NCBI GenBank assembly: GCA_045637985.1
Contig: JAZUAM010000020.1
Span: 184 to 64,183, forward strand
Reading direction: 5' to 3'
From: Alphaproteobacteria bacterium
GTDB taxonomy: Bacteria; Pseudomonadota; Alphaproteobacteria; RF32; CAG-239
Length of the DNA: 64,000 bases
Part shown: positions 3 through 46,333 of the stretch, piece after piece
How the letters are laid out: each line of letters starts with the position of its first letter
Numbering within the stretch: the stretch's first letter is position 1
Translations under genes and position numbers: made by a program
The notes under the pieces: generated by a model
Seen by the model: only the letters and a program-made list of their open reading frames with translations
Told to the model about the DNA's origin: nothing
Database searches by the model: none

Positions 3-839
3 TATCTCCACAAAGACGGATATCCGGAACTTTATAAAAAGATAAGTATGATTGGTAGCGTTGATGATTTATTCAAAGTTCCAGATTATAGCGGTGACTT
101 TGTTCGCGTTTATGGTGGAGATTCTGCTGCTGTAAATGCTCGACAAGAGGAAAGTTTGCCTGATTTTACTTTTTCCAGAGATATAGGTTGGACCGGGCAA
201 TATGGAACTGGATGGCCTAAAGAATCTGCAGATAGAACCACAGCAGGAACTGCAAACTCTTATGCTGTAACGACTCAAAAGATAAACCTTTCTTTTAGGG
301 CATCGGATGCTAATAGTATTTATTCTGGATCTCATGTTACACCTGTAAATACAGCTGTTCATGCTTATATTTATGCCGGAAAAATTAATACCTCAAAAGC
401 TTCAATAAAAGATCTCCCCAAGGATTGTAAAGCAAATTATTTCTACTACGCAGATGGAACATGTTCACAAACACGTAATACATCAAAAGGCTTAAAAGGT
501 ATTGTAATGACCGTATCTTCTTCAGCAACAGCGCAAATCGTACAATATATTACAGGCGGAAAAAATTATGAAAACTCTTATGAACGAGCAAATGCTAAAT
601 GTAGATCGTTGTATCAAACAGGTAGATTAATTGATCCAACTTCGGCAGCAACGTATATTGGCAACAAAATAACGGCTACAGTTAATGAAGTAGCTCCTAT
701 TTCAACCTCACGACAATATTGGAATAATTATGGAACCATTCATGCATGTACATCAACAACATCGTGTCATACAAACGGGGCAGCTGCTTCCGGTCAATAC
801 TATTATTATTATTGTCAAGGGAAAGATTATTTCTATTAA
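3..839 (+). CDS. Secreted phage-tail-collar-like domain protein, paralogue 1 (5' end outside the window)
   Basis: The track ORF starts at 48, but the same frame stays open to the window edge. It reads YLHKDGYPELY, which aligns with FLHKDAYPELY of the 2568-3647 paralogue, so the gene is cut by the window. It shares FKVPDYSGDFVRVYGG, HVTPVNTAVHAYIYAGK, DGTCSQTRNTSK and the C-terminal YYYYYCxGxDYFY end with the two other paralogues. Confidence 0.7.
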   Translation, partial: YLHKDGYPELYKKISMIGSVDDLFKVPDYSGDFVRVYGGDSAAVNARQEESLPDFTFSRDIGWTGQYGTGWPKESADRTTAGTANSYAVTTQKINLSFRASDANSIYSGSHVTPVNTAVHAYIYAGKINTSKASIKDLPKDCKANYFYYADGTCSQTRNTSKGLKGIVMTVSSSATAQIVQYITGGKNYENSYERANAKCRSLYQTGRLIDPTSAATYIGNKITATVNEVAPISTSRQYWNNYGTIHACTSTTSCHTNGAAASGQYYYYYCQGKDYFY

Positions 840-853
840 TCATAGGTTAGAAT

Positions 854-886
854 TACCAACCCCCCCTTTGCAAAGCGGGGGTGGTA
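854..886. terminator. GC-rich hairpin between convergent paralogues (probable bidirectional terminator, no clear U-tract)
   Basis: The sequence taccaaccccccc-tttgcaaagc-gggggtggta forms a ~10-bp stem. It sits between the stop at 839 (+) and the stop at 902 (-). It is related in sequence to the hairpin at 3667-3692. Confidence 0.4.
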
Positions 887-901
887 GACGTTATTCTATG
901 A

Positions 902-1981
902 CTAATAGAAGTAATCAGTGTTCATGCAGTAATAATAGTAGTATGTGCCGATTGTAGGGCTTCCGGCTGATGAACATGATGTGGTTGATGAGCACTTATA
1001 AACATTTCCAGAACCCTCCCAATATGTTTTTGAAGTCGAAATAGGATAAACTCTACCCGTTACAGATGTTATCTTAATGTAAGATTTAGCTGCGCTAACA
1101 CCTAAGACGCCACCATTCGCACCGTTTTTTTTGCACTCTGCTTCAGCTTCCACATAAGACTTAGCGGAAGACCCACCACCACTATAGTAAAATATAGTAT
1201 TGGAACCTGCACTATTTACAATACCTTTTAATGTTTTTGAGGTATTTAAGGATGAAGAGCAGGTTCCATCGGTATAATAGTATGAATTTGTTGTACAACC
1301 TGCAATCAAGTCTCTAGCTGATCCCTTAGATGTATCTACTTTACCTGCATAAATATAGGCGTTAACAGCTGTATTTACCGGTGTTACATGTGAACTGGCT
1401 CCATAGATAGAGCTGGATCTAGAAGCATCAAATTTCATTGTTATAAACCATCCCTCATCACCATCCACACCATCTCCGGTTTTTGACCCTTCATAAAATG
1501 CGCCGGTCGGAGCTACATATGATTGGTTTTCGGCTGAAGCTACCCATGTTCCGGTAATATTCGGCAAACTTTCTTTTTGACGTTGTGTTAAAGACCCTGA
1601 GTTTGTACCATAAACACGTACAAAGTCTCCGGCATAATCAGGAACTCTAAAAGTATTTCCGCTACCGCCAAATCTGGTTGAAAGTACCGCAAAAAGATCC
1701 GGATAAGCATTTTTGTGAAGATAGCGACCATCACATTTTACCCATTTTGAATCCGTTACGTCATAGGGAAAATACCCGATTTGGCCTACTGTAGCACTAG
1801 ATCCGATGCATTTACCTTTTGTTGTATCAAAAGGGCATTTAATAGAATCACTGCAACTCGCAACCGTATCGGTATAGCCCAGTTCTGCGCAAGTCGGCGG
1901 TGTAGCACAATTTATGGCGGCATAAGCTGAAGTGCTGGCTAGTAATGTGATTGTTAATGTAGCTAGATAGGCTCTGTTCAT
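902..1981 (-). CDS. Secreted phage-tail-collar-like domain protein, paralogue 2
   Basis: The track ORF is 902-2011. I prefer the ATG at 1981 (MNRAYLATLTITLLASTSAYA, a signal peptide ending AYA), which has GAGGAG 8 nt upstream. The mature part has a Cys-rich CATPPTCAELGYTD..CSDSIKCPFDTTKGKC module. It then shows GQIGYFP..KWVKCDGRYL..YPDLF..FGGSGNTFRVPDYAGDFVRVYG, a pattern I recognise as phage tail collar / MdpB-like. The C-terminus is Cys/Tyr-rich and ends YYYYYCMNTDYFY. Confidence 0.75.
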   Translation of the reverse strand: MNRAYLATLTITLLASTSAYAAINCATPPTCAELGYTDTVASCSDSIKCPFDTTKGKCIGSSATVGQIGYFPYDVTDSKWVKCDGRYLHKNAYPDLFAVLSTRFGGSGNTFRVPDYAGDFVRVYGTNSGSLTQRQKESLPNITGTWVASAENQSYVAPTGAFYEGSKTGDGVDGDEGWFITMKFDASRSSSIYGASSHVTPVNTAVNAYIYAGKVDTSKGSARDLIAGCTTNSYYYTDGTCSSSLNTSKTLKGIVNSAGSNTIFYYSGGGSSAKSYVEAEAECKKNGANGGVLGVSAAKSYIKITSVTGRVYPISTSKTYWEGSGNVYKCSSTTSCSSAGSPTIGTYYYYYCMNTDYFY

Positions 1982-2001
1982 GGGTAGTACTCCTCGTAAT
2001 G

Positions 2002-2037
2002 AATAGTGCATTTAAACCACCGTTTAAATGCACTATT
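2002..2037. repeat. 36-bp perfect palindrome (16-bp arms, 4-bp asymmetric centre CACC), left copy
   Basis: The sequence is aatagtgcatttaaac-cacc-gtttaaatgcactatt and the arms are exact reverse complements. It lies 20 nt upstream of the ATG of the minus-strand paralogue. A 33-nt block (1999-2031) is identical, in inverted orientation, to 2517-2549. Confidence 0.9.
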
Positions 2038-2172
2038 TTTTTGCCTGTTTTTTGAGGGAAGTTTTAACTCCCTTGATTTTGATGAATAATGCCTCATAAA
2101 AAAGGATGATATTTCTATTTGTTATCATGAAGTAATTTGTTGTTGAAGCAATCCTGTATTTTATGTATTCCT

Positions 2173-2300
2173 TCGTCGCTATCGCTCCTCGGAATGACTG
2201 AGGTGGTGAAGGTGGATTGCTTCAGCGCAAAGCGCTTCACAATGACAGAAAAAATAAAAAAATTGTCATCGCTTGAGCGAGGAACGAGCGATACCAGCGA
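2173..2300. repeat. REP/MITE-like nested palindromic element, GC-richer than its surroundings
   Basis: Imperfect terminal inverted repeats are present (tcgtcgctatcgctcctc at 2173-2190 versus the reverse complement of gaggaacgagcgataccagcga at 2279-2300). Internal hairpins include agcgc-aaa-gcgct and tgaca-gaaaaaataaaaaaat-tgtca. Related half-copies (ggagggatgact, ctcggagggaac on the reverse strand) occur at about 2347-2363 and 2391-2412. Confidence 0.6.
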
Positions 2301-2475
2301 TCTTCAATATTTGAATATAGAAGATCCCGTGACCAAATCTGGCGATTTGGAGGGATGACTTGATAGAGAAAGAGGCTTGACATCGTTCGCATTGTTCCCT
2401 CCGAGCTATGATATTTTTTGCAGCTATTTAATGTTACAAAAATATGAAAAACTGGCAAAAAATATCAAATCTTAA

Positions 2476-2504
2476 TTGTCTTTTTACCCTTTTTATTGTA
2501 TACT
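2476..2504 (+). promoter_or_regulatory. Sigma70-type promoter for paralogue 3 (TTGTCT-N17-TATACT)
   Basis: The -35 ttgtct is at 2476-2481, followed by an exactly 17-nt spacer and the -10 tatact at 2499-2504. The predicted transcription start falls at the edge of the palindrome 2511-2546. Confidence 0.5.
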
Positions 2505-2510
2505 GGTATC

Positions 2511-2546
2511 AATAAAGCATTTAAACGGTGGTTTAAATGCACTATT
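2511..2546. repeat. 36-bp palindrome (centre GGTG), right copy, inverted relative to the left copy
   Basis: The sequence is aataaagcatttaaac-ggtg-gtttaaatgcactatt, with 14 of 16 arm positions complementary. It lies 21 nt upstream of the ATG at 2568. Its centre GGTG is the reverse complement of the left-copy centre CACC. Confidence 0.9.
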
Positions 2547-2567
2547 CATCACGAGGAGACAATACCC

Positions 2568-3647
2568 ATGAAAAAAGCCTGTTTAACTTCAATAGCAACC
2601 ACCTTATTAACAGCGACCTCTGCTTATGCCTTGGATTGTGCTACACCACCTAGTTGTGCAGATTTGGGATATACAGATGAGGCTGCAAGTTGCAGTGATT
2701 CTATCAAATGCCCATTTGACACAACAAAAGGTAAATGTATCGGTTCTGGCGCCACCGTCGGACAAATCGGGTATTTCCCTTATACGGTAAACGATCCAAA
2801 ATGGGTAAAATGTGATGGGCGTTTTCTTCACAAAGATGCTTATCCGGAGCTTTATAATGTATTAAAATATTCATTTGGCGGTAGCGGAAATGCTTTTAGA
2901 GTTCCTGATTATGCCGGAGACTTTGTACGTGTTTATGGGGGGAATTCTAATAGCGTAACAACACGTCAGTCAGAAGGTTTGCCTAACATTTATGGCTCAC
3001 TTATTGCTGTAACACAGGACCATGCGCCGTCGGGGGCGTTTACAAAAAATTCAACCGCGAACTCAGGAATCCGCGGAGGAGGAGATTCAGATACTTGGAG
3101 GTGGAATATGAGCTTTAACGCTTCTAGCTATAACCCGATTTATGGAGCAAGCTTGCACGTTACACCGGTAAATACGGCTGTTAATGCCTATGTTTATGCC
3201 GGTAAGGTTGATACATCTGCAGGATCTGCAAAAAATTTACCGACAGATTGTGCTGAAGGTTATTACTATTATACCGATGGAACTTGTTCTTCGACGCGCA
3301 ATACATCCAAAACACAACGTGGTATTATTACATATGTATCCAAAGGAACAAGTCAAACCAGTGTTTCGTTTATCTGGGGAGGATCATATACAGCTTCTAC
3401 TTATGCAGTAGCTGAATCGCAGTGCAAAAGTAATTACAATGGATGGGTTAGAAGCGTGTATGATGCAAAAGTTATTCCAACATCAGCAACCGGAAATACA
3501 TATCCGATTACAGCAGGACGTTCTTATTGGTCTTACAGCACCTCTGTCTATAAATGTACCGGAACAACAACATCAACATGTACATCAACCTCAACTTTGC
3601 CAACGTCTGCTTACTATTGGTGTGGCGGATCTGACTACTATTACTAG
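2568..3647 (+). CDS. Secreted phage-tail-collar-like domain protein, paralogue 3
   Basis: The track ORF begins at a TTG at 2496, which lies inside the promoter and palindrome. I prefer the ATG at 2568 (MKKACLTSIATTLLTATSAYA, a signal peptide), which has GAGGAG upstream. Its architecture matches paralogue 2. A 62-nt DNA block (2877-2938) matches 1608-1669 on the opposite strand with one mismatch. Confidence 0.75.
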   Translation: MKKACLTSIATTLLTATSAYALDCATPPSCADLGYTDEAASCSDSIKCPFDTTKGKCIGSGATVGQIGYFPYTVNDPKWVKCDGRFLHKDAYPELYNVLKYSFGGSGNAFRVPDYAGDFVRVYGGNSNSVTTRQSEGLPNIYGSLIAVTQDHAPSGAFTKNSTANSGIRGGGDSDTWRWNMSFNASSYNPIYGASLHVTPVNTAVNAYVYAGKVDTSAGSAKNLPTDCAEGYYYYTDGTCSSTRNTSKTQRGIITYVSKGTSQTSVSFIWGGSYTASTYAVAESQCKSNYNGWVRSVYDAKVIPTSATGNTYPITAGRSYWSYSTSVYKCTGTTTSTCTSTSTLPTSAYYWCGGSDYYY

Positions 3648-3666
3648 TTATACAGATAATTATGTA

Positions 3667-3692
3667 AACCCCCGTTTTGCAAAACGGGGGTT
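3667..3692 (+). terminator. Perfect GC-rich hairpin after paralogue 3 (probable terminator, weak U-tract)
   Basis: The sequence aacccccgtttt-gc-aaaacgggggtt is a perfect palindrome located 20 nt after the stop codon. Confidence 0.45.
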
Positions 3693-3895
3693 AAAATTAT
3701 GTAAGGCAAAATAATCATTGTTATTGAATGGCACAAAAACACTATTTTCTTGTGAAGTTGTTAATATCTTAAATAAATGGTTAACTAAACAATATTTTTA
3801 AGTTAAATGATAGATAAATGGGGAAAATGATTCGCACAGATTTTTGGTTGTGCGTGTCAGTGTGTTTATATTTTTTATTATAGATTGGGGAATCT

Positions 3896-15559: not shown

Positions 15560-15725
15560 AATAATCAGAAACCGTTTAGCCGTATACTACATTCTTGAAA
15601 CGAACCGCGGGTCAATAAGTGGGTGCCATATAAATAAACCTCGATTTATCCAGCGACAGCTCCCTAATAAGTAATGTTGGCTCGGAAGACCTGCTAAACT
15701 ACGCACTACGCAGTCTCCAATTCAA
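15560..15725 (-). ncRNA. ssrS: Candidate 6S RNA (ssrS)
   Basis: A 225-bp non-coding gap lies directly downstream of zapA on the same strand, which is the conserved ssrS position. Distal segments can pair (GGAGACUG from 15711-15718 with CGGUUUCU from 15567-15574; GUUUAGC with GCUAAAC). A terminator follows. The fold was done by eye only and is not clean. Confidence 0.45.
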
Positions 15726-29594: not shown

Positions 29595-30659
29595 ATGGCT
29601 CAATCAATTACATTAACAGCAAGTATGCGTTCTAATCTGGCATCGTTGAAGTCAATCCAAAAACAAATGGATACCACTCAAGAAAGATTATCTACAGGTA
29701 AGAAAGTAAACTCTGCTATTGATAATGCTTCAAGTTTTTATCAATCACGTGCATTAACCAATCGTGCTGGCGATTTAGATGCTCTATTAGATAGCATGGG
29801 ACAGGGTATTCAAACAATTCAAGCTGCTAACGAGGGTATTGAAGGTGTTACATCTTTCGTTGAACAATTAAAATCAATCGCTAATTCGGCCTATGCTTTG
29901 GATCCGACATTGGATACATATGAAGACACAATCAATAGCTACAAAGAACAGTTTGAGACAATTCAAACCGAAATCAGCAAATTAGTAAAAGACTCTTCTT
30001 ACCAAGGTATCAATTTGTTGACTGCCGGTAAATTGACCGTTACTTTTAACGAGTCGCGTTCTCACCGCTTTGTTGTTCAAGGTGATGATATTGTTGCCGA
30101 AATGGCAATTTCATCTGCTAACGATTGGAAAATGATTGCAAATAAGACCTTGGATGCGGATTTAACTAATACCGCAGGTGATGTAGTTGCTAAAGAAGGT
30201 GCTTTACAATACTCTGTTATCGGTGCTAACGGCAATCCAACAGGAGTAACTGTTGCTTTAGGTGTTGATGATAATTACTATGATGTTGGTGGTGATGGTG
30301 ATACAGCATACACACTTCAAACCGGCGAAACACTTAAGCTCTTGACAGAAGAAGTTACCGAAGGTGGTAGCTATGCTGAAGATATTGATAAGACATTGAC
30401 TGAACTTTCAGTAGCAATCGATTATTTGCGTGCATATTCTACAGAACTCGGTAACAACTTTACCATCATCGAGACACGTCAAAACTTTACCGATGCTTTG
30501 ATTGATGTTTTGGAAACAGGTTCAGACAATCTTGTATTGGCCGATATGAACGAAGAATCTGCAAACTACTTAGCATTGCAAACACGCCAACAGTTGGCAA
30601 CCAATTCTTTGTCTTTGGCTTCTCAGTCAGCACAATCAATTTTGAGCTTGTTCAATTAA
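29595..30659 (+). CDS. Flagellin (copy 1, 354 aa)
   Basis: It shares the conserved N-terminus (ITLTASMRSNLASLKSIQKQMDTTQERLSTGKKVNSAIDNAS) and C-terminus (LADMNEESANYLALQTRQQLA.NSLSLASQSAQS) with the two following genes. The centre is variable. Confidence 0.9.
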   Translation: MAQSITLTASMRSNLASLKSIQKQMDTTQERLSTGKKVNSAIDNASSFYQSRALTNRAGDLDALLDSMGQGIQTIQAANEGIEGVTSFVEQLKSIANSAYALDPTLDTYEDTINSYKEQFETIQTEISKLVKDSSYQGINLLTAGKLTVTFNESRSHRFVVQGDDIVAEMAISSANDWKMIANKTLDADLTNTAGDVVAKEGALQYSVIGANGNPTGVTVALGVDDNYYDVGGDGDTAYTLQTGETLKLLTEEVTEGGSYAEDIDKTLTELSVAIDYLRAYSTELGNNFTIIETRQNFTDALIDVLETGSDNLVLADMNEESANYLALQTRQQLATNSLSLASQSAQSILSLFN

Positions 30660-30686
30660 TTTGTTGGGCTACGCTTATTTACAAGA

Positions 30687-30716
30687 AAAGACGGCTTCTG
30701 CCGTCTTTTTTTTTTG
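30687..30716 (+). terminator. Flagellin-1 terminator
   Basis: The hairpin aaaagacggc-ttct-gccgtctttt is followed by a T-run. Confidence 0.85.
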
Positions 30717-30817
30717 TATTTATATAATTTGTTTACTTTTTATTAATATTTGTTTGTGAAAATGACATCAGCTTAAAAGAACTTAAGCTCTATGCAAATT
30801 TATTTAGGAGAAATAAA

Positions 30818-31861
30818 ATGGCTCAGACCAGTATTACATTGACAGCAAGTATGCGTTCTAACTTGTCTTCATTAAAATCAATTCAAAAACAAATGGATAC
30901 AACACAAGAGAGACTTTCTACAGGTAAGAAAGTAAACTCTGCTATTGATAATGCATCAAGCTACTATCAGTCTCGCGCTTTGACTAACCGTGCCGCAGAT
31001 TTGGAAGGCTTGTTGGATAATATGGGACAAGGTATTCAAACAATTCAAGCTGCCAACGAAGGTATTGAAGCAGTAACAGCTTATGTTGATCAATTAAAAT
31101 CAATCGCAAACTCTGCTTATGCTTTGGATGCTAACGCTTCTACATATAACGAATCTATGGCTAGCTACAAAGAACAATATGACGAAATTTTAACAGAAAT
31201 TGGTAAATTAGTAAAAGACTCATCTTACCAAGGTGTTAATTTGTTGACCGGTGGTAAGTTGACAGTTACTTTCAACGAATCTCGTTCTCACAGCTTTGAA
31301 GTTCAAGGTGATGATGTTGTTGCTAAAATGGCATTGACCAAAGGTACAGCATGGACAACAGCTCCACTTCAAGTTCCTGAAAAAGCTGATCAGGAATATG
31401 ATACAGCGACTACAGATGTCAAAATTGCTGAAGGTGCTGAAGTTTTGATTAACGAGGGTGGTGATAAAATTGCCAAAGCATCTGATGGAAAATATTATGA
31501 ATTACAAGATTCCGGTGCTGAAGTTGCAGACATCAGCGGATACAAAACATCTATGGTTGATGGTGACGTTGATAGCTATGCTGCTGCAATTGATAATTCT
31601 TTGACTGAATTGTCAAAGGCTGTTGATTACTTGCGTTCTTACTCAACAGAACTCGGTAATAACTTTTCTGTAATCGAAACACGTCAAGACTTCACTGAAG
31701 CAATGATTGATGTTTTGGAAACAGGTTCAGACAACCTTGTATTGGCCGACATGAACGAAGAATCTGCAAACTACTTGGCATTGCAGACACGTCAGCAATT
31801 GGCCGTCAACTCTTTGTCTTTGGCTTCTCAATCTGCACAGTCAGTATTGAGCTTGTTCTAA
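30818..31861 (+). CDS. Flagellin (copy 2, 347 aa)
   Basis: It has the same conserved termini as copy 1 and a different central domain. Confidence 0.9.
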   Translation: MAQTSITLTASMRSNLSSLKSIQKQMDTTQERLSTGKKVNSAIDNASSYYQSRALTNRAADLEGLLDNMGQGIQTIQAANEGIEAVTAYVDQLKSIANSAYALDANASTYNESMASYKEQYDEILTEIGKLVKDSSYQGVNLLTGGKLTVTFNESRSHSFEVQGDDVVAKMALTKGTAWTTAPLQVPEKADQEYDTATTDVKIAEGAEVLINEGGDKIAKASDGKYYELQDSGAEVADISGYKTSMVDGDVDSYAAAIDNSLTELSKAVDYLRSYSTELGNNFSVIETRQDFTEAMIDVLETGSDNLVLADMNEESANYLALQTRQQLAVNSLSLASQSAQSVLSLF

Positions 31862-31890
31862 GCCTCAAGACTTACGGTTACCAAAAATAT

Positions 31891-31920
31891 AGCGAGGGTT
31901 TTAGAATCCTCGCTTTTCTT
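31891..31920 (+). terminator. Flagellin-2 terminator
   Basis: The hairpin agcgagg-gttttagaat-cctcgct is followed by TTTCTT. Confidence 0.75.
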
Positions 31921-32132
31921 ATATCCATAACAAAAGAATCGTTCTATTAATCAAAATTTATCGAAAATCGCAATATCGCGGTATTATAATACCCGGCGCA
32001 TCCAAAAGTTTACCTGATTTTCCCCCTTTTTTTCCGATTCGAATCCCGAGTCGCAATAAAAAATGTTTCACATAAAATCATATATAAATCAATGCGTTAA
32101 TCTACGTGAAACCATTTTTTGCTGTTTTCGTA

Positions 32133-32161
32133 TTGTTTGGGGTTGCGAAATATGATATACT
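32133..32161 (+). promoter_or_regulatory. Sigma70-like promoter upstream of flagellin 3 (TTGTTT-N17-TATACT)
   Basis: The -35 is at 32133-32138, followed by a 17-nt spacer and the -10 at 32156-32161. This would give a ~65-nt leader. Confidence 0.4.
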
Positions 32162-32228
32162 GAACCTGTAGTGTTAGTAGAAGCACCACAAGTAATGTGA
32201 AAACCTTTTATTTTATGGGAGAAAAGCC

Positions 32229-33083
32229 ATGACTGCTATTACATTAACCGCAAGTATGCGTTCTAATTTATCTTCATTGAAAACAATTCAAGCTCAAATG
32301 GATAAAACACAAGAGAGACTTTCTACAGGTAAGAAAGTAAACTCTGCTATTGATAATGCTTCAAGCTTCTATCAATCAAGAGCTTTAACTAACCGTGCAT
32401 CAGACCTTGATGGTTTGTTGGATAGCATGGGCCAGGGTATTCAAACAATTCAGGCTGCCAACGAAGGTATTGAAGCTGTAACAGCATTCGTTGATCAGTT
32501 AAAATCAATTGCAAACTCAGCTGTTGCACTTGATCCTACAGCAGAAACATATGATACAACAATTGCCAGCTACAAAGAGCAATTTGATGCAATCATCGGT
32601 GAAATCGGAAAAGTTGTAAAAGATGCTTCTTACCAAGGTGTAAACTTGTTGACCGGTGGTAAATTGTCAGTTACTTTCAACGAATCTCGTTCTCACAGTT
32701 TTGAAGTTCAAGGTGATGATGTTGTTGCCAAAATGGGTATTACCGCTGCGGCCACAAAGTGGGTTGCTGACGAAGATGCAGGCACAACTATTGCCGATGC
32801 TATCGGTGGAGAAGATGGAACATTGGATCAAATTTCAAAAGCTGTTGATTATTTACGTTCATACTCAACCAAATTAGGTAACAACTTTACCATTATCGAA
32901 ACACGTCAAGACTTTACAGAAGCTATGATTAACGTGTTAGAAACCGGTTCAGACAACCTTGTATTGGCCGATATGAACGAAGAATCTGCAAACTACCTTG
33001 CTTTGCAAACTCGTCAACAATTGGCTGTCAACTCGTTGTCTTTGGCTGCTCAGTCTGCACAATCAGTATTGAGTTTGTTCTAA
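32229..33083 (+). CDS. Flagellin (copy 3, 284 aa, shortest central domain)
   Basis: It has the same conserved termini as copies 1 and 2. Confidence 0.9.
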   Translation: MTAITLTASMRSNLSSLKTIQAQMDKTQERLSTGKKVNSAIDNASSFYQSRALTNRASDLDGLLDSMGQGIQTIQAANEGIEAVTAFVDQLKSIANSAVALDPTAETYDTTIASYKEQFDAIIGEIGKVVKDASYQGVNLLTGGKLSVTFNESRSHSFEVQGDDVVAKMGITAAATKWVADEDAGTTIADAIGGEDGTLDQISKAVDYLRSYSTKLGNNFTIIETRQDFTEAMINVLETGSDNLVLADMNEESANYLALQTRQQLAVNSLSLAAQSAQSVLSLF

Positions 33084-45905: not shown

Positions 45906-46308
45906 AGATAAGATAGTCGGACAGTCGCGCCATAGCTTATGCCTATGGTGAGGAAAGTCCGGGCTTCAAGGGAACACGATACCGGATAACGTCCGGCTGG
46001 GGGAACCCAAGGGAAAGTGCCACAGAGATATACCGCCGTACTATATGTTCGGTAAGGCTGAAAAGGCGAGGTAAGAGCTCACCGCGGTGGTGGTAACATC
46101 ATCGGTCCAGGTAAACCCTATCGGATGCAAGACCAAGTTAGGAGCGCATAGGTGTTATTTTTTTATAGCAAACCATGTGATATGGAGCGTTCTCTCTCCA
46201 CTCCAGAGGTAGGTCGCGACGAGCCGTTTGGTAACAATCGGCCCAGATGAATGGCTGTCGATTTGAGCTTGCTCAAATTACAGAACCCGGCTTATAGACT
46301 GTCTTATT
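45906..46308 (+). ncRNA. rnpB: RNase P RNA, bacterial type A
   Basis: The universal P4 strands GAGGAAAGTCCGGGCT (45950s) and ACAGAACCCGGCTTAT (46280s) are present, as are GGTAAGAGCTCACCG and CCAGATGAATGGCTGTC. P1 pairing is ataagatagtc with gactgtcttat. By eye the sequence is collinear with E. coli M1 RNA. Confidence 0.93.
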
Positions 46309-46333
46309 TGTTTTTTTGCAATGAGGGATAAAT

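Follow-up and report, generated by a model that had tools for sequence, protein, structure and literature searches.

The closest described counterparts of the locus analysed here are three mycoplasma systems, vpma of Mycoplasma agalactiae, vsp of M. bovis and vsa of M. pulmonis, which are rearranged by the tyrosine recombinases Xer1, Mbr and HvsR, respectively (PMC2268961). Each comprises a family of surface-protein genes with a conserved 5' untranslated region and signal peptide, a recombination site in every 5' UTR and a single promoter, behind which silent genes are brought by site-specific inversions (PMC2268961). Another design is found in mpl of M. penetrans, whose dispersed genes each have their own small invertible promoter, mostly OFF, with Mpi as the invertase (PMC2268961). 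In Bacteroides fragilis, unlinked master invertases (Tsr0667, Tsr19) act at many distant sites, and Tsr0667 serves shufflon-type loci as well as simple invertons (PMC4747536). Patrick et al. (2003; cited in PMC3090145) reportedly describe the B. fragilis inverted repeats as hin-like, and gene-altering programmed inversions include a PilV/tail-collar fusion gene among their targets (PMC9881135).

Here we describe an alphaproteobacterial locus in which two divergent genes for paralogous proteins are each preceded by a palindrome. The stretch of DNA analysed, 64 kb in length, is referred to below as the window. The layout of vpma, vsp and vsa is shared by the window, by a sister species designated X, and by the related contigs L038 and L059. 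Judging from sequence, the palindromes are likely to be crossover sites of programmed DNA inversion, working as a single-promoter switch of the vpma/vsa type with an unlinked recombinase, and the cell can probably switch which copy of the paralogue is made.

Two further types of system bear on the comparison. Work on Campylobacter fetus by Dworkin and Blaser in 1996-97 reportedly placed the sapA promoter on a segment between oppositely oriented surface-protein homologues, the inversion of which switches expression. Larger inversions at sap bring in further cassettes; the process requires RecA and takes place in conserved stretches of 5' coding sequence, several hundred bp long. The Hin/hix, Gin/gix and Cin/cix systems employ ~26-bp sites of two-fold symmetry (12-2-12) with an asymmetric central dinucleotide and invert promoter or tail-fibre segments.

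Organisation of the locus

The features of the locus are collected in Table 1. The gene products are tail-fibre-like secreted proteins, and the target family as a whole consists of secreted, Cys-rich, Collar-domain proteins. Searches of NCBIfam and PDB sequences with the product of gene C found nothing, its AF2 model (pLDDT 76) gave weak tail-fibre matches only, and an exact-protein look-up of genes B and C in the contig index returned no record. Within the paralogue family the first 70 residues are 62-99% identical, compared with 34-83% for the bodies, and mosaics occur (e.g., P0003 and P0016); therefore, homologous exchange in the 5' coding region also takes place. Genes B and C further contain a 66-nt inverted tract of 98% identity.

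Table 1. Features of the locus and their positions in the window
Feature	Position	Strand	Remarks
Paralogue A	3..839	+	5' end cut by the window start, so that any leader site would fall outside the window; convergent with B
GC-rich palindrome between convergent A and B	855..888	.	Likely bidirectional terminator closing the cassette
Paralogue B, 359 aa	902..1981	-	Signal peptide, Collar domain (PF07484); adjoins the non-promoter end, predicted OFF in the present orientation
Leader of B, RBS GAGGAG	1982..2001	-	Within the 48-nt inverted repeat
Left recombination site (candidate)	2002..2037	.	On the + strand, core 2008-2031 is GCATTTAAAC-CACC-GTTTAAATGC; its flanks prolong it into a perfect palindrome of 36 bp
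Candidate invertible segment between the cores, 485 bp	2032..2516	.	Ends conserved, middle variable in alignment
Non-promoter end (U2)	2038..2082	+	T-run right after the left palindrome; second hairpin GGGAAGTTTTAACTCCC, then TTGATTTTG; conserved in L038, L059 and L028
GC-rich insertion	2256..2403	.	Missing from L038, L059, L028 and L044; variable filler akin to a dispersed repeat
Promoter module, 77 nt upstream of the core	2440..2516	+	Invariant in three species, the adjacent proteins being merely 70-74% identical
Sigma70-type promoter TTGTCT-N17-TATACT	2476..2504	+	9/12 matches; 12 nt from the core; start predicted at ~2511, at the foot of the right-site hairpin
Right recombination site (candidate)	2511..2546	.	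Core 2517-2540 with GGTG at its centre, facing the opposite way to the left site; left arm imperfect in its outer portion (AA replaces GT)
Leader of C, RBS GAGGAG	2547..2567	+	Within the 48-nt inverted repeat
Paralogue C, 359 aa	2568..3647	+	Collar domain; 57-59% identity to B; adjoins the promoter, predicted ON
Hairpin AAACCCCCGTTTTGCAAAACGGGGGTT 3' of gene C	3666..3692	+	Likely terminator ahead of fliF

The candidate recombination sites

The putative crossover core is a 24-bp sequence, GCATTTAAAC-GGTG-GTTTAAATGC, composed of two 10-bp inverted arms and an asymmetric 4-bp centre (GGTG/CACC) that confers polarity. It occurs exactly twice in the 64 kb (0 expected, from 100 shuffles), the two copies lying 509 bp apart start to start, with opposite polarity and with all 24 consensus positions matched in each. 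The cores sit 26-27 nt 5' of the ATGs of the two divergent Collar-domain paralogues. Both copies belong to an inverted gene duplication of ~1.1 kb, a context that the original prediction did not mention. They are its outermost and most strongly conserved part, and their opposite orientation is not independent evidence because it is set by the gene arrangement. The inverted repeat around the sites reaches 48 nt at 94% identity, with a perfect part of only 33 nt, and this 33-nt block is the one anticipated by the original prediction (1999-2031 is the reverse complement of 2517-2549).

That prediction had placed the same 36-bp element ahead of both paralogues. The left copy is indeed a perfect palindrome of 16+4+16 with the centre CACC, and the distances from palindrome end to start codon agree with the claim, being 20 nt on the left (ATG 1981) and 21 nt on the right (ATG 2568). 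The right copy was wrongly credited with the same arms. Its left arm is aataAAgcatttaaac, so that the 36 bp do not make up a perfect palindrome, and perfect pairing is confined to the inner 10 bp of each arm. Folding predicts stable hairpins at the two sites (-18.4 and -12 kcal/mol, z-scores -11.8 and -5.3), both of which score as terminator-like toward inward transcription. Rfam, at gathering as well as permissive thresholds, returned no real match, only chance-level eukaryotic hairpins with E-values of at least 0.16, far under the gathering scores.

Further copies of the site, a search for which had been suggested at the outset, do exist. A scan of a genome collection for the core found 27 loci, nearly all in metagenome-assembled genomes (MAGs) of gut Alphaproteobacteria. 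The core sequence was not found in the literature searched; the class of mechanism is well known, and the site family and the bacterial group are undescribed. Some copies are unlike a simple inversion site, three having palindromic GTAC centres (L002, L013, L018) and one locus carrying a direct pair (L001). In other MAGs, large secreted proteins are preceded by copies with a GTAC centre.

Promoter and intervening segment

The promoter at 2476-2504 reads outward through the right site and was identified by consensus match only. It agrees with the original prediction in sequence and position, and the lack of an equivalent promoter toward the left gene was likewise confirmed, the best outward-reading match no more than 20 nt from the left site scoring 7/12. 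Within reach of the locus it is the sole sigma70 promoter with 9/12 matches. Promoter-like matches in the region show no excess (15 found, 10.1 expected in shuffles), and weak minus-strand matches lie at 2408-2468. The promoter is homologous to the TTGCTT-N17-TATAAT promoter of the short invertons of the related MAG SIG59, described below, with a gap of 12-13 nt to the core in both, and the 77-nt promoter module adjoins genes with differing bodies (C-like, P0020/P0016-like, P0005 and P0007).

The segment is without a long open reading frame; two 73-aa ORFs, one on each strand, overlap each other and take in the variable insertion. At its non-promoter end, both U2 structures look like terminators for transcription running into the segment, to judge by their sequence. 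A metagenome scan for the junction of promoter and half-site gave no matches, the nearest relative (L044) differing by one base.

Rearrangements in related genomes

Inversion of the inter-site segment, as originally proposed, is supported by comparison with relatives, namely by the two orientations in SIG59, the inverted cassette of species X, the difference between L038 and L059, and the homologous promoter module. Scattered over SIG59 are 12 pairs of sites with a spacing of 153 bp, and every pair encloses a 129-nt segment that bears the promoter. Relative to the flanking secreted-protein gene, the promoter faces the gene at two loci (L012, L022) and faces away at ten, where the segment is 84-98% identical to the reverse complement versus 64-70% in the forward direction, with unchanged flanks. 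At the gene-proximal site, partner identity comprises the core and ~5 nt only, which places the exchange within ~29 bp. The repeats measure only ~30 nt, each inverton lies between unique flanks, and the distal copies of the site adjoin no gene.

The sister lineage L066 retains the 10-4-10 design with other arms, inverted centres GAAC/GTTC, a distance of 120 bp and a homologous promoter. The other short pairs are spaced at 122, 132, 133 and 153 bp, distances that agree in helical phase, and the short-spaced inner segments measure 98-129 nt. All short-spaced loci sampled from the ERZ1026981/OZSH01 human-gut lineage (122-133 bp pairs) and from the L066 lineage (120 bp) are OFF, which speaks against the inversion reading. 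A candidate case of the same locus being ON in one sample and OFF in another within a short-inverton lineage, P0013 (L064, L065), was rejected, its orientation being OFF in both samples.

The samples of species X agree in their DNA at 100% identity, and two arrangements occur among them. Seven contigs hold state 1, fliF-[site]-G0>-<G1-[site]-segment-[site]-G2, and in two others (state 2; L031, L042) the 2.4-kb two-gene cassette G0-G1 is turned round precisely from one of its sites to the other; junctions of both states are present in a single contig of 2.4 kb (L033=L041). The promoter adjoins G2 in every contig that spans it, a point against the inversion reading. The perfect repeat here is 115 nt, shorter than the k=141 of the ENA contigs, all of which are in state 1, and for the state-2 contigs it is shorter than k only if JGI's usual top k of 127 applies.

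The closest relative, represented by L038 and L059, has the same fliF-linked architecture. These two loci have 4,591 nt of fliF flank in common, with 99.9% identity. Their 365-nt orthologous segment is 100% identical and stands in opposite orientation relative to this flank, so that gene P0020/G4 has the promoter end as its neighbour in L059 but, in L038, the non-promoter end; on its left, the exchange stops at the core edge. Among loci of the window type, this is the only pair in which the promoter segment itself is flipped. The L059 repeat is 53 nt, in a 48-kb contig assembled at k141, and the orientation in L038 is given across a perfect inverted repeat of 202 nt, by scaffolding with paired ends. 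As in species X, every complete gene of L038 carries a site. The junctions of states 1 and 2 and of L038/L059 come from the JGI samples 3300029305, 3300018475 and 3300024270 and the ENA samples ERZ28593768 and ERZ27317802. A further comparison, L049 with L056, had been considered as an inter-locus exchange, as the two share flank and segment and differ in the genes beyond; it was set aside as a possible low-coverage chimera (2-4x coverage).

Search for a recombinase

The original prediction had called for a search for a nearby or distant recombinase, and none was found within the window. Motifs of serine and tyrosine recombinases, sought with regular expressions in ORFs of at least 100 aa, are absent from the window's 53 large ORFs and from loci L001-L027, and reading the translations of the window's ORFs by eye revealed no recombinase. 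The motif YxRVSTxxQ occurs nowhere in the window. A Pfam scan of ten unassigned ORFs beside the SIG59 invertons found no recombinase domain. No integrase-like ORF lies in the 62 kb downstream of the locus. For the opposite side, syntenic relatives show ~4-5 kb without one, encoding ferritin, rpe, a response regulator and tgt.

Alternative explanations

The inversions could be real and still be the work of RecA, acting in the manner of C. fetus sap by homologous recombination between the 5' parts (leader, signal peptide and N-terminal domain) of the inverted paralogues, with the palindrome as merely their best-conserved part. This explanation draws on the perfect inverted repeats around the sites of species X and L038 (115 and 202 nt), on the homogenised, mosaic N-termini and the nearly identical 66-nt tract inside genes B and C, on the lack of a recombinase gene in all the neighbourhoods searched, and on the crossovers of species X and L038/L059, which can be placed no finer than the core plus 81-178 nt. 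However, at the 12 SIG59 loci the exchange is confined to ~24-29 bp, and the perfect repeat of the window is only 33 nt, both short substrates for RecA. The core, including its asymmetric centre, is identical across lineages with diverged flanks, which implies sequence-specific recognition, something homologous recombination does not need. The sister lineage moreover keeps the 10-4-10 design with other letters, and the short pairs keep to one helical phase. We consider RecA-driven inversion unlikely.

The palindrome might instead be a duplicated leader element and nothing more, either the operator of a dimeric regulator or a 5' stem-loop or terminator in the mRNA, with a fixed segment and both genes conventionally regulated. 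Duplication alone would give the sites the same orientation relative to each gene, and the stable hairpins, the terminator-like scores toward inward transcription, the symmetric GTAC-centre copies ahead of large secreted proteins and the weak minus-strand promoter-like matches all speak for it. Yet the distal copies in SIG59 adjoin no gene and bracket segments of both orientations, near-identical strains with the window architecture differ by site-bounded rearrangements, both window cores match the consensus in full with opposite polarity, and the promoter-like matches are no commoner than in shuffled sequence. A leader element in place of inversion seems quite improbable; an mRNA hairpin, also raised by the original prediction, and a terminator function are probably true as secondary properties of the site. 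As for the contigs themselves, the alternative arrangements could be artefacts of assembly at repeated sites, which would leave the inverted repeats as the only evidence: many contigs stop at a site or ~20-40 nt from one (L033, L036, L039, L040, L043), the L038 repeat is beyond k-mer resolution, and L049 and L056 run from a common flank and segment into different genes, at 2-4x coverage. Population heterogeneity would, however, also break contigs at the sites, while the SIG59 repeats are short and lie between unique flanks, the species X repeat is shorter than a k of 127 or 141, with state 2 assembled independently in two samples, and the L059 repeat spans 53 nt, against the k of 141 used for its 48-kb contig. 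We regard an artefact as very improbable indeed.

Proposed mechanism

Site-specific inversion is the preferred reading. As sequenced, the promoter would read through the right site into paralogue C. A site-specific recombinase encoded elsewhere would swap strands inside the cores, flipping the segment so that the promoter faces paralogue B. The window copy may flip at present, and expression of the two genes would be mutually exclusive. The promoter-flipped junction is expected to read CGTAATGAATAGT-core-TTTATTGATACCAGTATAC. Genes appear to be arranged in convergent pairs with a leader site each; for A such a site may be assumed from the cassettes G0-G1 and G2-G3, convergent as well and provided with a site at both 5' ends, and inversion of the putative A-B cassette would let A reach the promoter. 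With a site in the leaders of B and C and presumably in that of A, the third paralogue, which is cut by the window start, the system would have more than two sites and so resemble a single-promoter shufflon more closely than a plain two-state switch. When transcribed, the palindrome probably forms a 5' stem-loop of the mRNA, and when followed by a T-run, it probably acts as a terminator that insulates the silent side.

A more comprehensive scheme can be put forward tentatively, and we rate it as less likely than not. One unlinked master invertase would act on one palindromic 24-bp site in two architectures, a dozen or more dispersed mini-invertons and the fliF-linked single-promoter shufflons. 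The site would be of dual use, a crossover in DNA and, in RNA, a structure with two roles: on the gene side a stem-loop that stabilises the 5' end, on the non-gene side an intrinsic terminator made up of hairpin and U-run. The genes switched by it would encode tail-fibre-like adhesins.

Comparison with described inversion systems

The window shares with vpma, vsp and vsa a family of at least the three paralogues A, B and C and a conserved leader repeat (48 nt at 94%); of these genes, B and C each carry a site in the 5' UTR. Site-bounded inversions that exchange the promoter-adjacent gene are found in its relatives, in species X and between L038 and L059. The mycoplasma loci contain or adjoin their recombinase gene, whereas none was found at the window locus over 62 kb on one side and, in syntenic relatives, ~4-5 kb on the other; without an adjacent tyrosine recombinase, the window resembles these systems in its working but is not to be counted as a homologue of them. 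It differs further in its site sequence, unrelated as far as tested, in its host, one of the Alphaproteobacteria, and in its products, which are Collar-domain proteins and not lipoproteins. The layout of mpl and of the B. fragilis invertons is matched by SIG59 (two loci ON, ten OFF) and the ERZ1026981 loci, with the same core serving both architectures here; the phylum, the promoter type (here sigma70-like) and the target genes differ, and the segments here are very short (98-129 nt).

Likeness to sap lies in the promoter segment between opposed homologues and in the conserved 5' regions. By contrast, the 24-bp core is conserved across genera here and is the only sequence shared in SIG59. The 33-nt repeat of the window and the ~29 bp of SIG59 argue against long 5' crossovers of the sap type, which the repeats of 115-202 nt and the mosaics in relatives would allow. 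The core can also be read as 11-2-11 with a central GT/AC, and it may resemble the hix sequence, ...TTTAAACC-AC-CGTTTAAA... here against ...AAAACC-AA-GGTTTT..., both with A/T-rich arms ending in AAAC(C/G). Neither an invertase gene in or beside the segment nor a Fis-dependent enhancer was identified, and the H, G and C segments are far longer than the 98-129 nt segments here. Several sites in alternating orientation, allowing multiple inversions per locus, recall the R64 shufflon (Rci). In the R64 shufflon and the gene-altering inversions, however, the 5' part of the gene stays in place and receives alternative 3' coding segments (PMC9881135), whereas the sites described here precede complete genes, and it is the promoter or whole genes that move.

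Implications

The advance is one of scope and detail and not of principle, as the class of mechanism is well established. One site family serves both classical designs, an invertible promoter per gene and a promoter common to several invertible genes, and a programmed inversion system is, as part of the model that we favour as likely, present in several lineages of uncultured gut Alphaproteobacteria. The recognition site, GCATTTAAAC-GGTG-GTTTAAATGC with its variants with GTAC or GAAC/GTTC centres, is searchable, explains assembly breaks at these places in the organisms concerned, and lets PhaseFinder-type tools score ON and OFF states in gut metagenomes. If the adhesin reading is true, switching would alter what the bacterium binds and be a cellular counterpart of the host-range switch of the phage Mu G segment. 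The system would give these poorly known, uncultured gut Alphaproteobacteria a phase-variation regulon.

Paired elements and genes in the window

The two divergent 359-aa genes B and C flank a candidate invertible segment bounded by paired palindromic elements (table). The left element is the perfect palindrome described in the original prediction, and the 33 nt said to be identical between the copies are indeed so, within a 94% match over 48 nt. The palindromes stop 20 and 21 nt before the two ATGs, also as proposed. The right element has the predicted inverted centre, GGTG, but not the same arms: its left arm reads aataAAgc rather than aataGTgc, and pairing is confined to the inner 10 bp of each arm. 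The 24-bp core, GCATTTAAACGGTGGTTTAAATGC, occurs exactly twice in the 64 kb, with 0 occurrences expected in shuffles, and Rfam returned no family match in the paired-element region. Since an inverted gene duplication of ~1.1 kb has the two copies at its outer edge, their opposite orientation is automatic and by itself no evidence. The promoter asymmetry suggested earlier holds: one end of the segment carries the promoter, and the best outward-reading candidate toward the left gene, within 20 nt of the left site, scores 7/12.

Proteins B and C (57-59% identity) each combine a signal peptide, a Cys-rich N-terminal region and a Pfam Collar domain. A third paralogue, A, truncated by the window start, is convergent with B, and fliF followed by a flagellar cluster lies downstream of C. 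The family is rare (45 database clusters) and has no match in NCBIfam or PDB sequence searches; an AF2 model of C (pLDDT 76) resembles phage tail fibres only, and weakly (T4 gp12, probability 0.95, E=0.047). The JAZODJ MAG and the sister species X have an intact site upstream of fliF, placed between a Collar gene and the homologue of the window from 3735 onward, so the window locus may have arisen from such an arrangement by deletion.

Coordinates of features in the window and in fetched loci of relatives (L numbers)
Feature	Location	Remarks
Gene A	window 3-839 (+)	
Gene B	window 902-1981 (-)	
Gene C	window 2568-3647 (+)	
Left element; core	window 2002-2037; 2008-2031	16+4+16, centre CACC
Right element; core	window 2511-2546; 2517-2540	
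Candidate invertible segment	window 2032-2516	
Promoter	window 2476-2504	TTGTCT-N17-TATACT
Non-promoter end	window 2038-2082	T-run and second hairpin
Inner inverted repeat	window 2037-2052, 2447-2462	TTTTTTGCCTGTTTTT / AAAAACTGGCAAAAAA; kept in L038 and L028; motif GGCAAAAAA resembles a half-site of the L066 sister family (GCAAAAAAAC-GAAC-GTTTTTTTGC); perhaps a vestigial site or an accessory one
GC-rich insertion	window 2256-2403	mid-segment; missing in close relatives
Part of insertion	window 2257-2320	resembles dispersed repeat beside SIG59 invertons
Copies of window 2310-2380	L015 460-717	three in tandem
66-nt inverted repeat	window 1608-1673 (in B), 2873-2938 (in C)	FRVPDYAGDFVRVYG region; 98% identical, far above the 55% of the protein bodies; possibly a tract of gene conversion, or else an alternative point of crossover
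AAAAACACTATTTTCTTG	window 3735-3752	downstream of C; resembles site arm plus its flank
Intact site region, JAZODJ	L025 2039-2115	
Flagellin paralogues	window 29595-33083	three in tandem; potentially another variable surface family
6S RNA	window 15565-15719 (-)	
Bacterial RNase P RNA	window 45909-46310	
Left of left site	L059 1-113	leader and ATG, then 84 nt of non-Collar sequence (no match in other fetched sequences), stop after 6 codons; either gene remnant or contig-end artefact
Inverton before membrane protein gene	L003 3628-3804; L027 7947-7970	two MAGs; 308-aa protein, weak DUF6/EamA-like match, next to dnaE
Direct site pair	L001 5281-5304, 5463-5486	182 bp apart; second site has 2 mismatches; upstream of 828-aa ORF; TTGATT-N17-TATCAT 12 nt before second site
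Palindromic GTAC centre, or GTTG centre	L002 909; L013 2749; L018 4539, 4647; L020 1213	other alphaproteobacterial MAGs; some in pairs at 108-125 bp, ahead of genes for large secreted proteins

Site pairs in other genomes

Among 185,579 species-representative genomes, the pattern GCATTTAAAC-N4-GTTTAAATGC matched at 27 loci, nearly all in gut Alphaproteobacteria MAGs. One MAG, SIG59, holds 12 site pairs (L019 and L026 possibly being one locus split across contig ends), of opposite polarity and each exactly 153 bp start to start. They enclose 129 nt with a promoter, TTGCTT-N17-TATAAT, homologous to that of the window and 13 nt from one core; on one side lies a gene for a small secreted protein with a common N-terminal motif (...AYAALDCATPPTC), on the other a conserved non-coding flank. 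With the gene as reference, L012 and L022 hold the inner segment in forward orientation and the other ten loci hold its reverse complement; these ten show 84-98% identity in that orientation versus 64-70% forward, and the flanks are unchanged. At the gene-proximal site, the sequence beyond the core (ACGATTCGG) is unlike either segment end, which places the exchange within the core plus ~5 nt. On the outward side of the distal site, TTTTTGTTTT comes after the palindrome and the whole scores as a terminator; the gene-facing side lacks a T-run.

A human-gut lineage (ERZ1026981/OZSH01 with L064 and L065) shares this design at 122-133 bp spacing, with the promoter facing away from the gene at all sampled loci. 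In the L066 lineage the design is kept in different letters, GCAAAAAAAC-GAAC-GTTTTTTTGC and GCAAAAAAAC-GTTC-CTTTTTTTGC, 120 bp apart. The short-pair spacings of 122, 132, 133 and 153 bp start to start (L007-L026, L045-L056, L064-L066) follow n x 10.5 + ~6.5 bp, the 120 bp of L066 being slightly off, and weakly suggest a helical-phase constraint on a small synaptic loop. The same inverton is also found ahead of a membrane protein gene (L003, L027), so the switch is not restricted to Collar-like genes.

The site thus collected consists of two 10-bp inverted arms around an asymmetric 4-bp centre and, on sequence grounds, looks like the target of a site-specific recombinase. Its core is identical across lineages with differing flanks; similarity to the core was the criterion for gathering the instances, which leaves the difference between core and flanks as the telling observation. 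Opposite centres are found in nearly all pairs; only the direct pair of L001 and the GTAC-centred copies, whose symmetric centre would confer no polarity, depart from this. The arms end AAAC(C/G) around a central GT/AC, and hix and gix sites have similar arm ends around their centre, a weak lead on the recombinase type.

Rearrangements at window-type loci

Species X, represented by JGI and ENA samples with DNA 100% identical in the compared parts, carries four paralogues, G0 to G3. State 1, seen in seven contigs, is fliF(-)-site(+)-G0(+)-G1(-)-site(-)-segment-site(+)-G2(+)-G3(-), with a 491-bp segment and the promoter at its right end. Contigs L031 and L042, from other samples, read G1(+)-G0(-)-site(-)-segment-site(+)-G2 (state 2): the 2.4-kb convergent cassette runs the other way round, exactly from one of its sites to the other. 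A 2,443-nt contig (L033, identical to L041) extends 22 nt beyond each site; one of its ends shows the junction of state 2 and the other that of state 1, which a mixed population would produce. The contig end at the G3 site shares an exact 19-nt stretch with the fliF-side flank, a hint of further states.

L038 and L059, both from the closest relative of the window (93% identity in flagellar genes), agree with each other at 99.9% over 4,591 nt (fliF to G4/P0020) and at 100% in the 365-nt segment. In L038 the non-promoter end adjoins G4 and the promoter faces G5, whereas in L059 the promoter end adjoins the same G4/P0020 gene; differences at the junction are limited to two bases just outside the core. 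A promoter module of 77 nt is invariant in three species, and the genes that follow it in other assemblies differ in their bodies (P0016, P0005, P0007).

Discussion

Where an inverted repeat exceeds the assembler's k, assembly does not fix which way the DNA between its copies runs. The perfect repeat at the species X cassette (115 nt) is below the k=141 of the ENA contigs, all in state 1, and below the top k of the state-2 contigs, presumably the 127 usual at JGI; those of SIG59 (~30 nt), the window (33 nt) and L059 (53 nt, in a k141 contig) are likewise safe, and that of L038 is 202 nt, so that its orientation rests on read pairs. Because their perfect repeats are shorter than k, the evidence from SIG59 and species X is solid; the comparison of L038 with L059, the only direct example at a window-type locus of a promoter segment in flipped orientation, is weaker. 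Assembly artefacts do not explain all rearrangements, as they leave SIG59 unaccounted for and state 2 was assembled independently. Nor does a pure leader hairpin or operator explain everything, since distal, gene-less copies of the palindrome surround flipped segments.

RecA-type inversion, as in C. fetus sap, may operate alongside a site-specific process. It is favoured by long repeats in some strains and by N-terminal mosaics among the paralogues: in P0003 a C-type body carries a B-type N-terminus, and in P0016 a P0020-type body carries a C-type signal peptide. Among P0003, P0016, P0008/P0020, B and C, proteins with bodies only 34-54% identical reach 88-99% identity in their N-terminal 70 residues, so the 5' coding region evolves in concert or is exchanged apart from the body. 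Against RecA-type inversion stand the exchange window of 24-29 bp in SIG59 and the conservation of a specific asymmetric sequence across lineages.

Under site-specific inversion, the promoter of the window as sequenced would transcribe through the right site and switch gene C on, giving an mRNA with a 5' stem-loop (predicted -12 kcal/mol). If strands were exchanged between the cores, the segment would flip and gene B would be switched on; the T-run and hairpin at the non-promoter end would stop transcription from the silent side. Expression of gene A would take an inversion of the A-B cassette, requiring a site upstream of A beyond the window start, and then a segment flip. No ORF of the 64-kb window resembles a recombinase; the enzyme would be encoded elsewhere in the genome. 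In B. fragilis, master invertases are unlinked, and one of them acts on shufflons as well as on simple invertons (PMC4747536).

In function, the window corresponds to the vpma/vsp/vsa design, whose counterpart for the SIG59 loci is that of M. penetrans mpl and Bacteroides (PMC2268961). The site sequence was not found in the literature searched, and none of the consulted surveys of invertons and gene-altering inversions describes it. As the recombinase is not adjacent and the site is absent from that literature, membership in any of those families is not demonstrable. Of interest are the host group, the target proteins, the dual architecture and a possible double use of the site, as DNA and as RNA.
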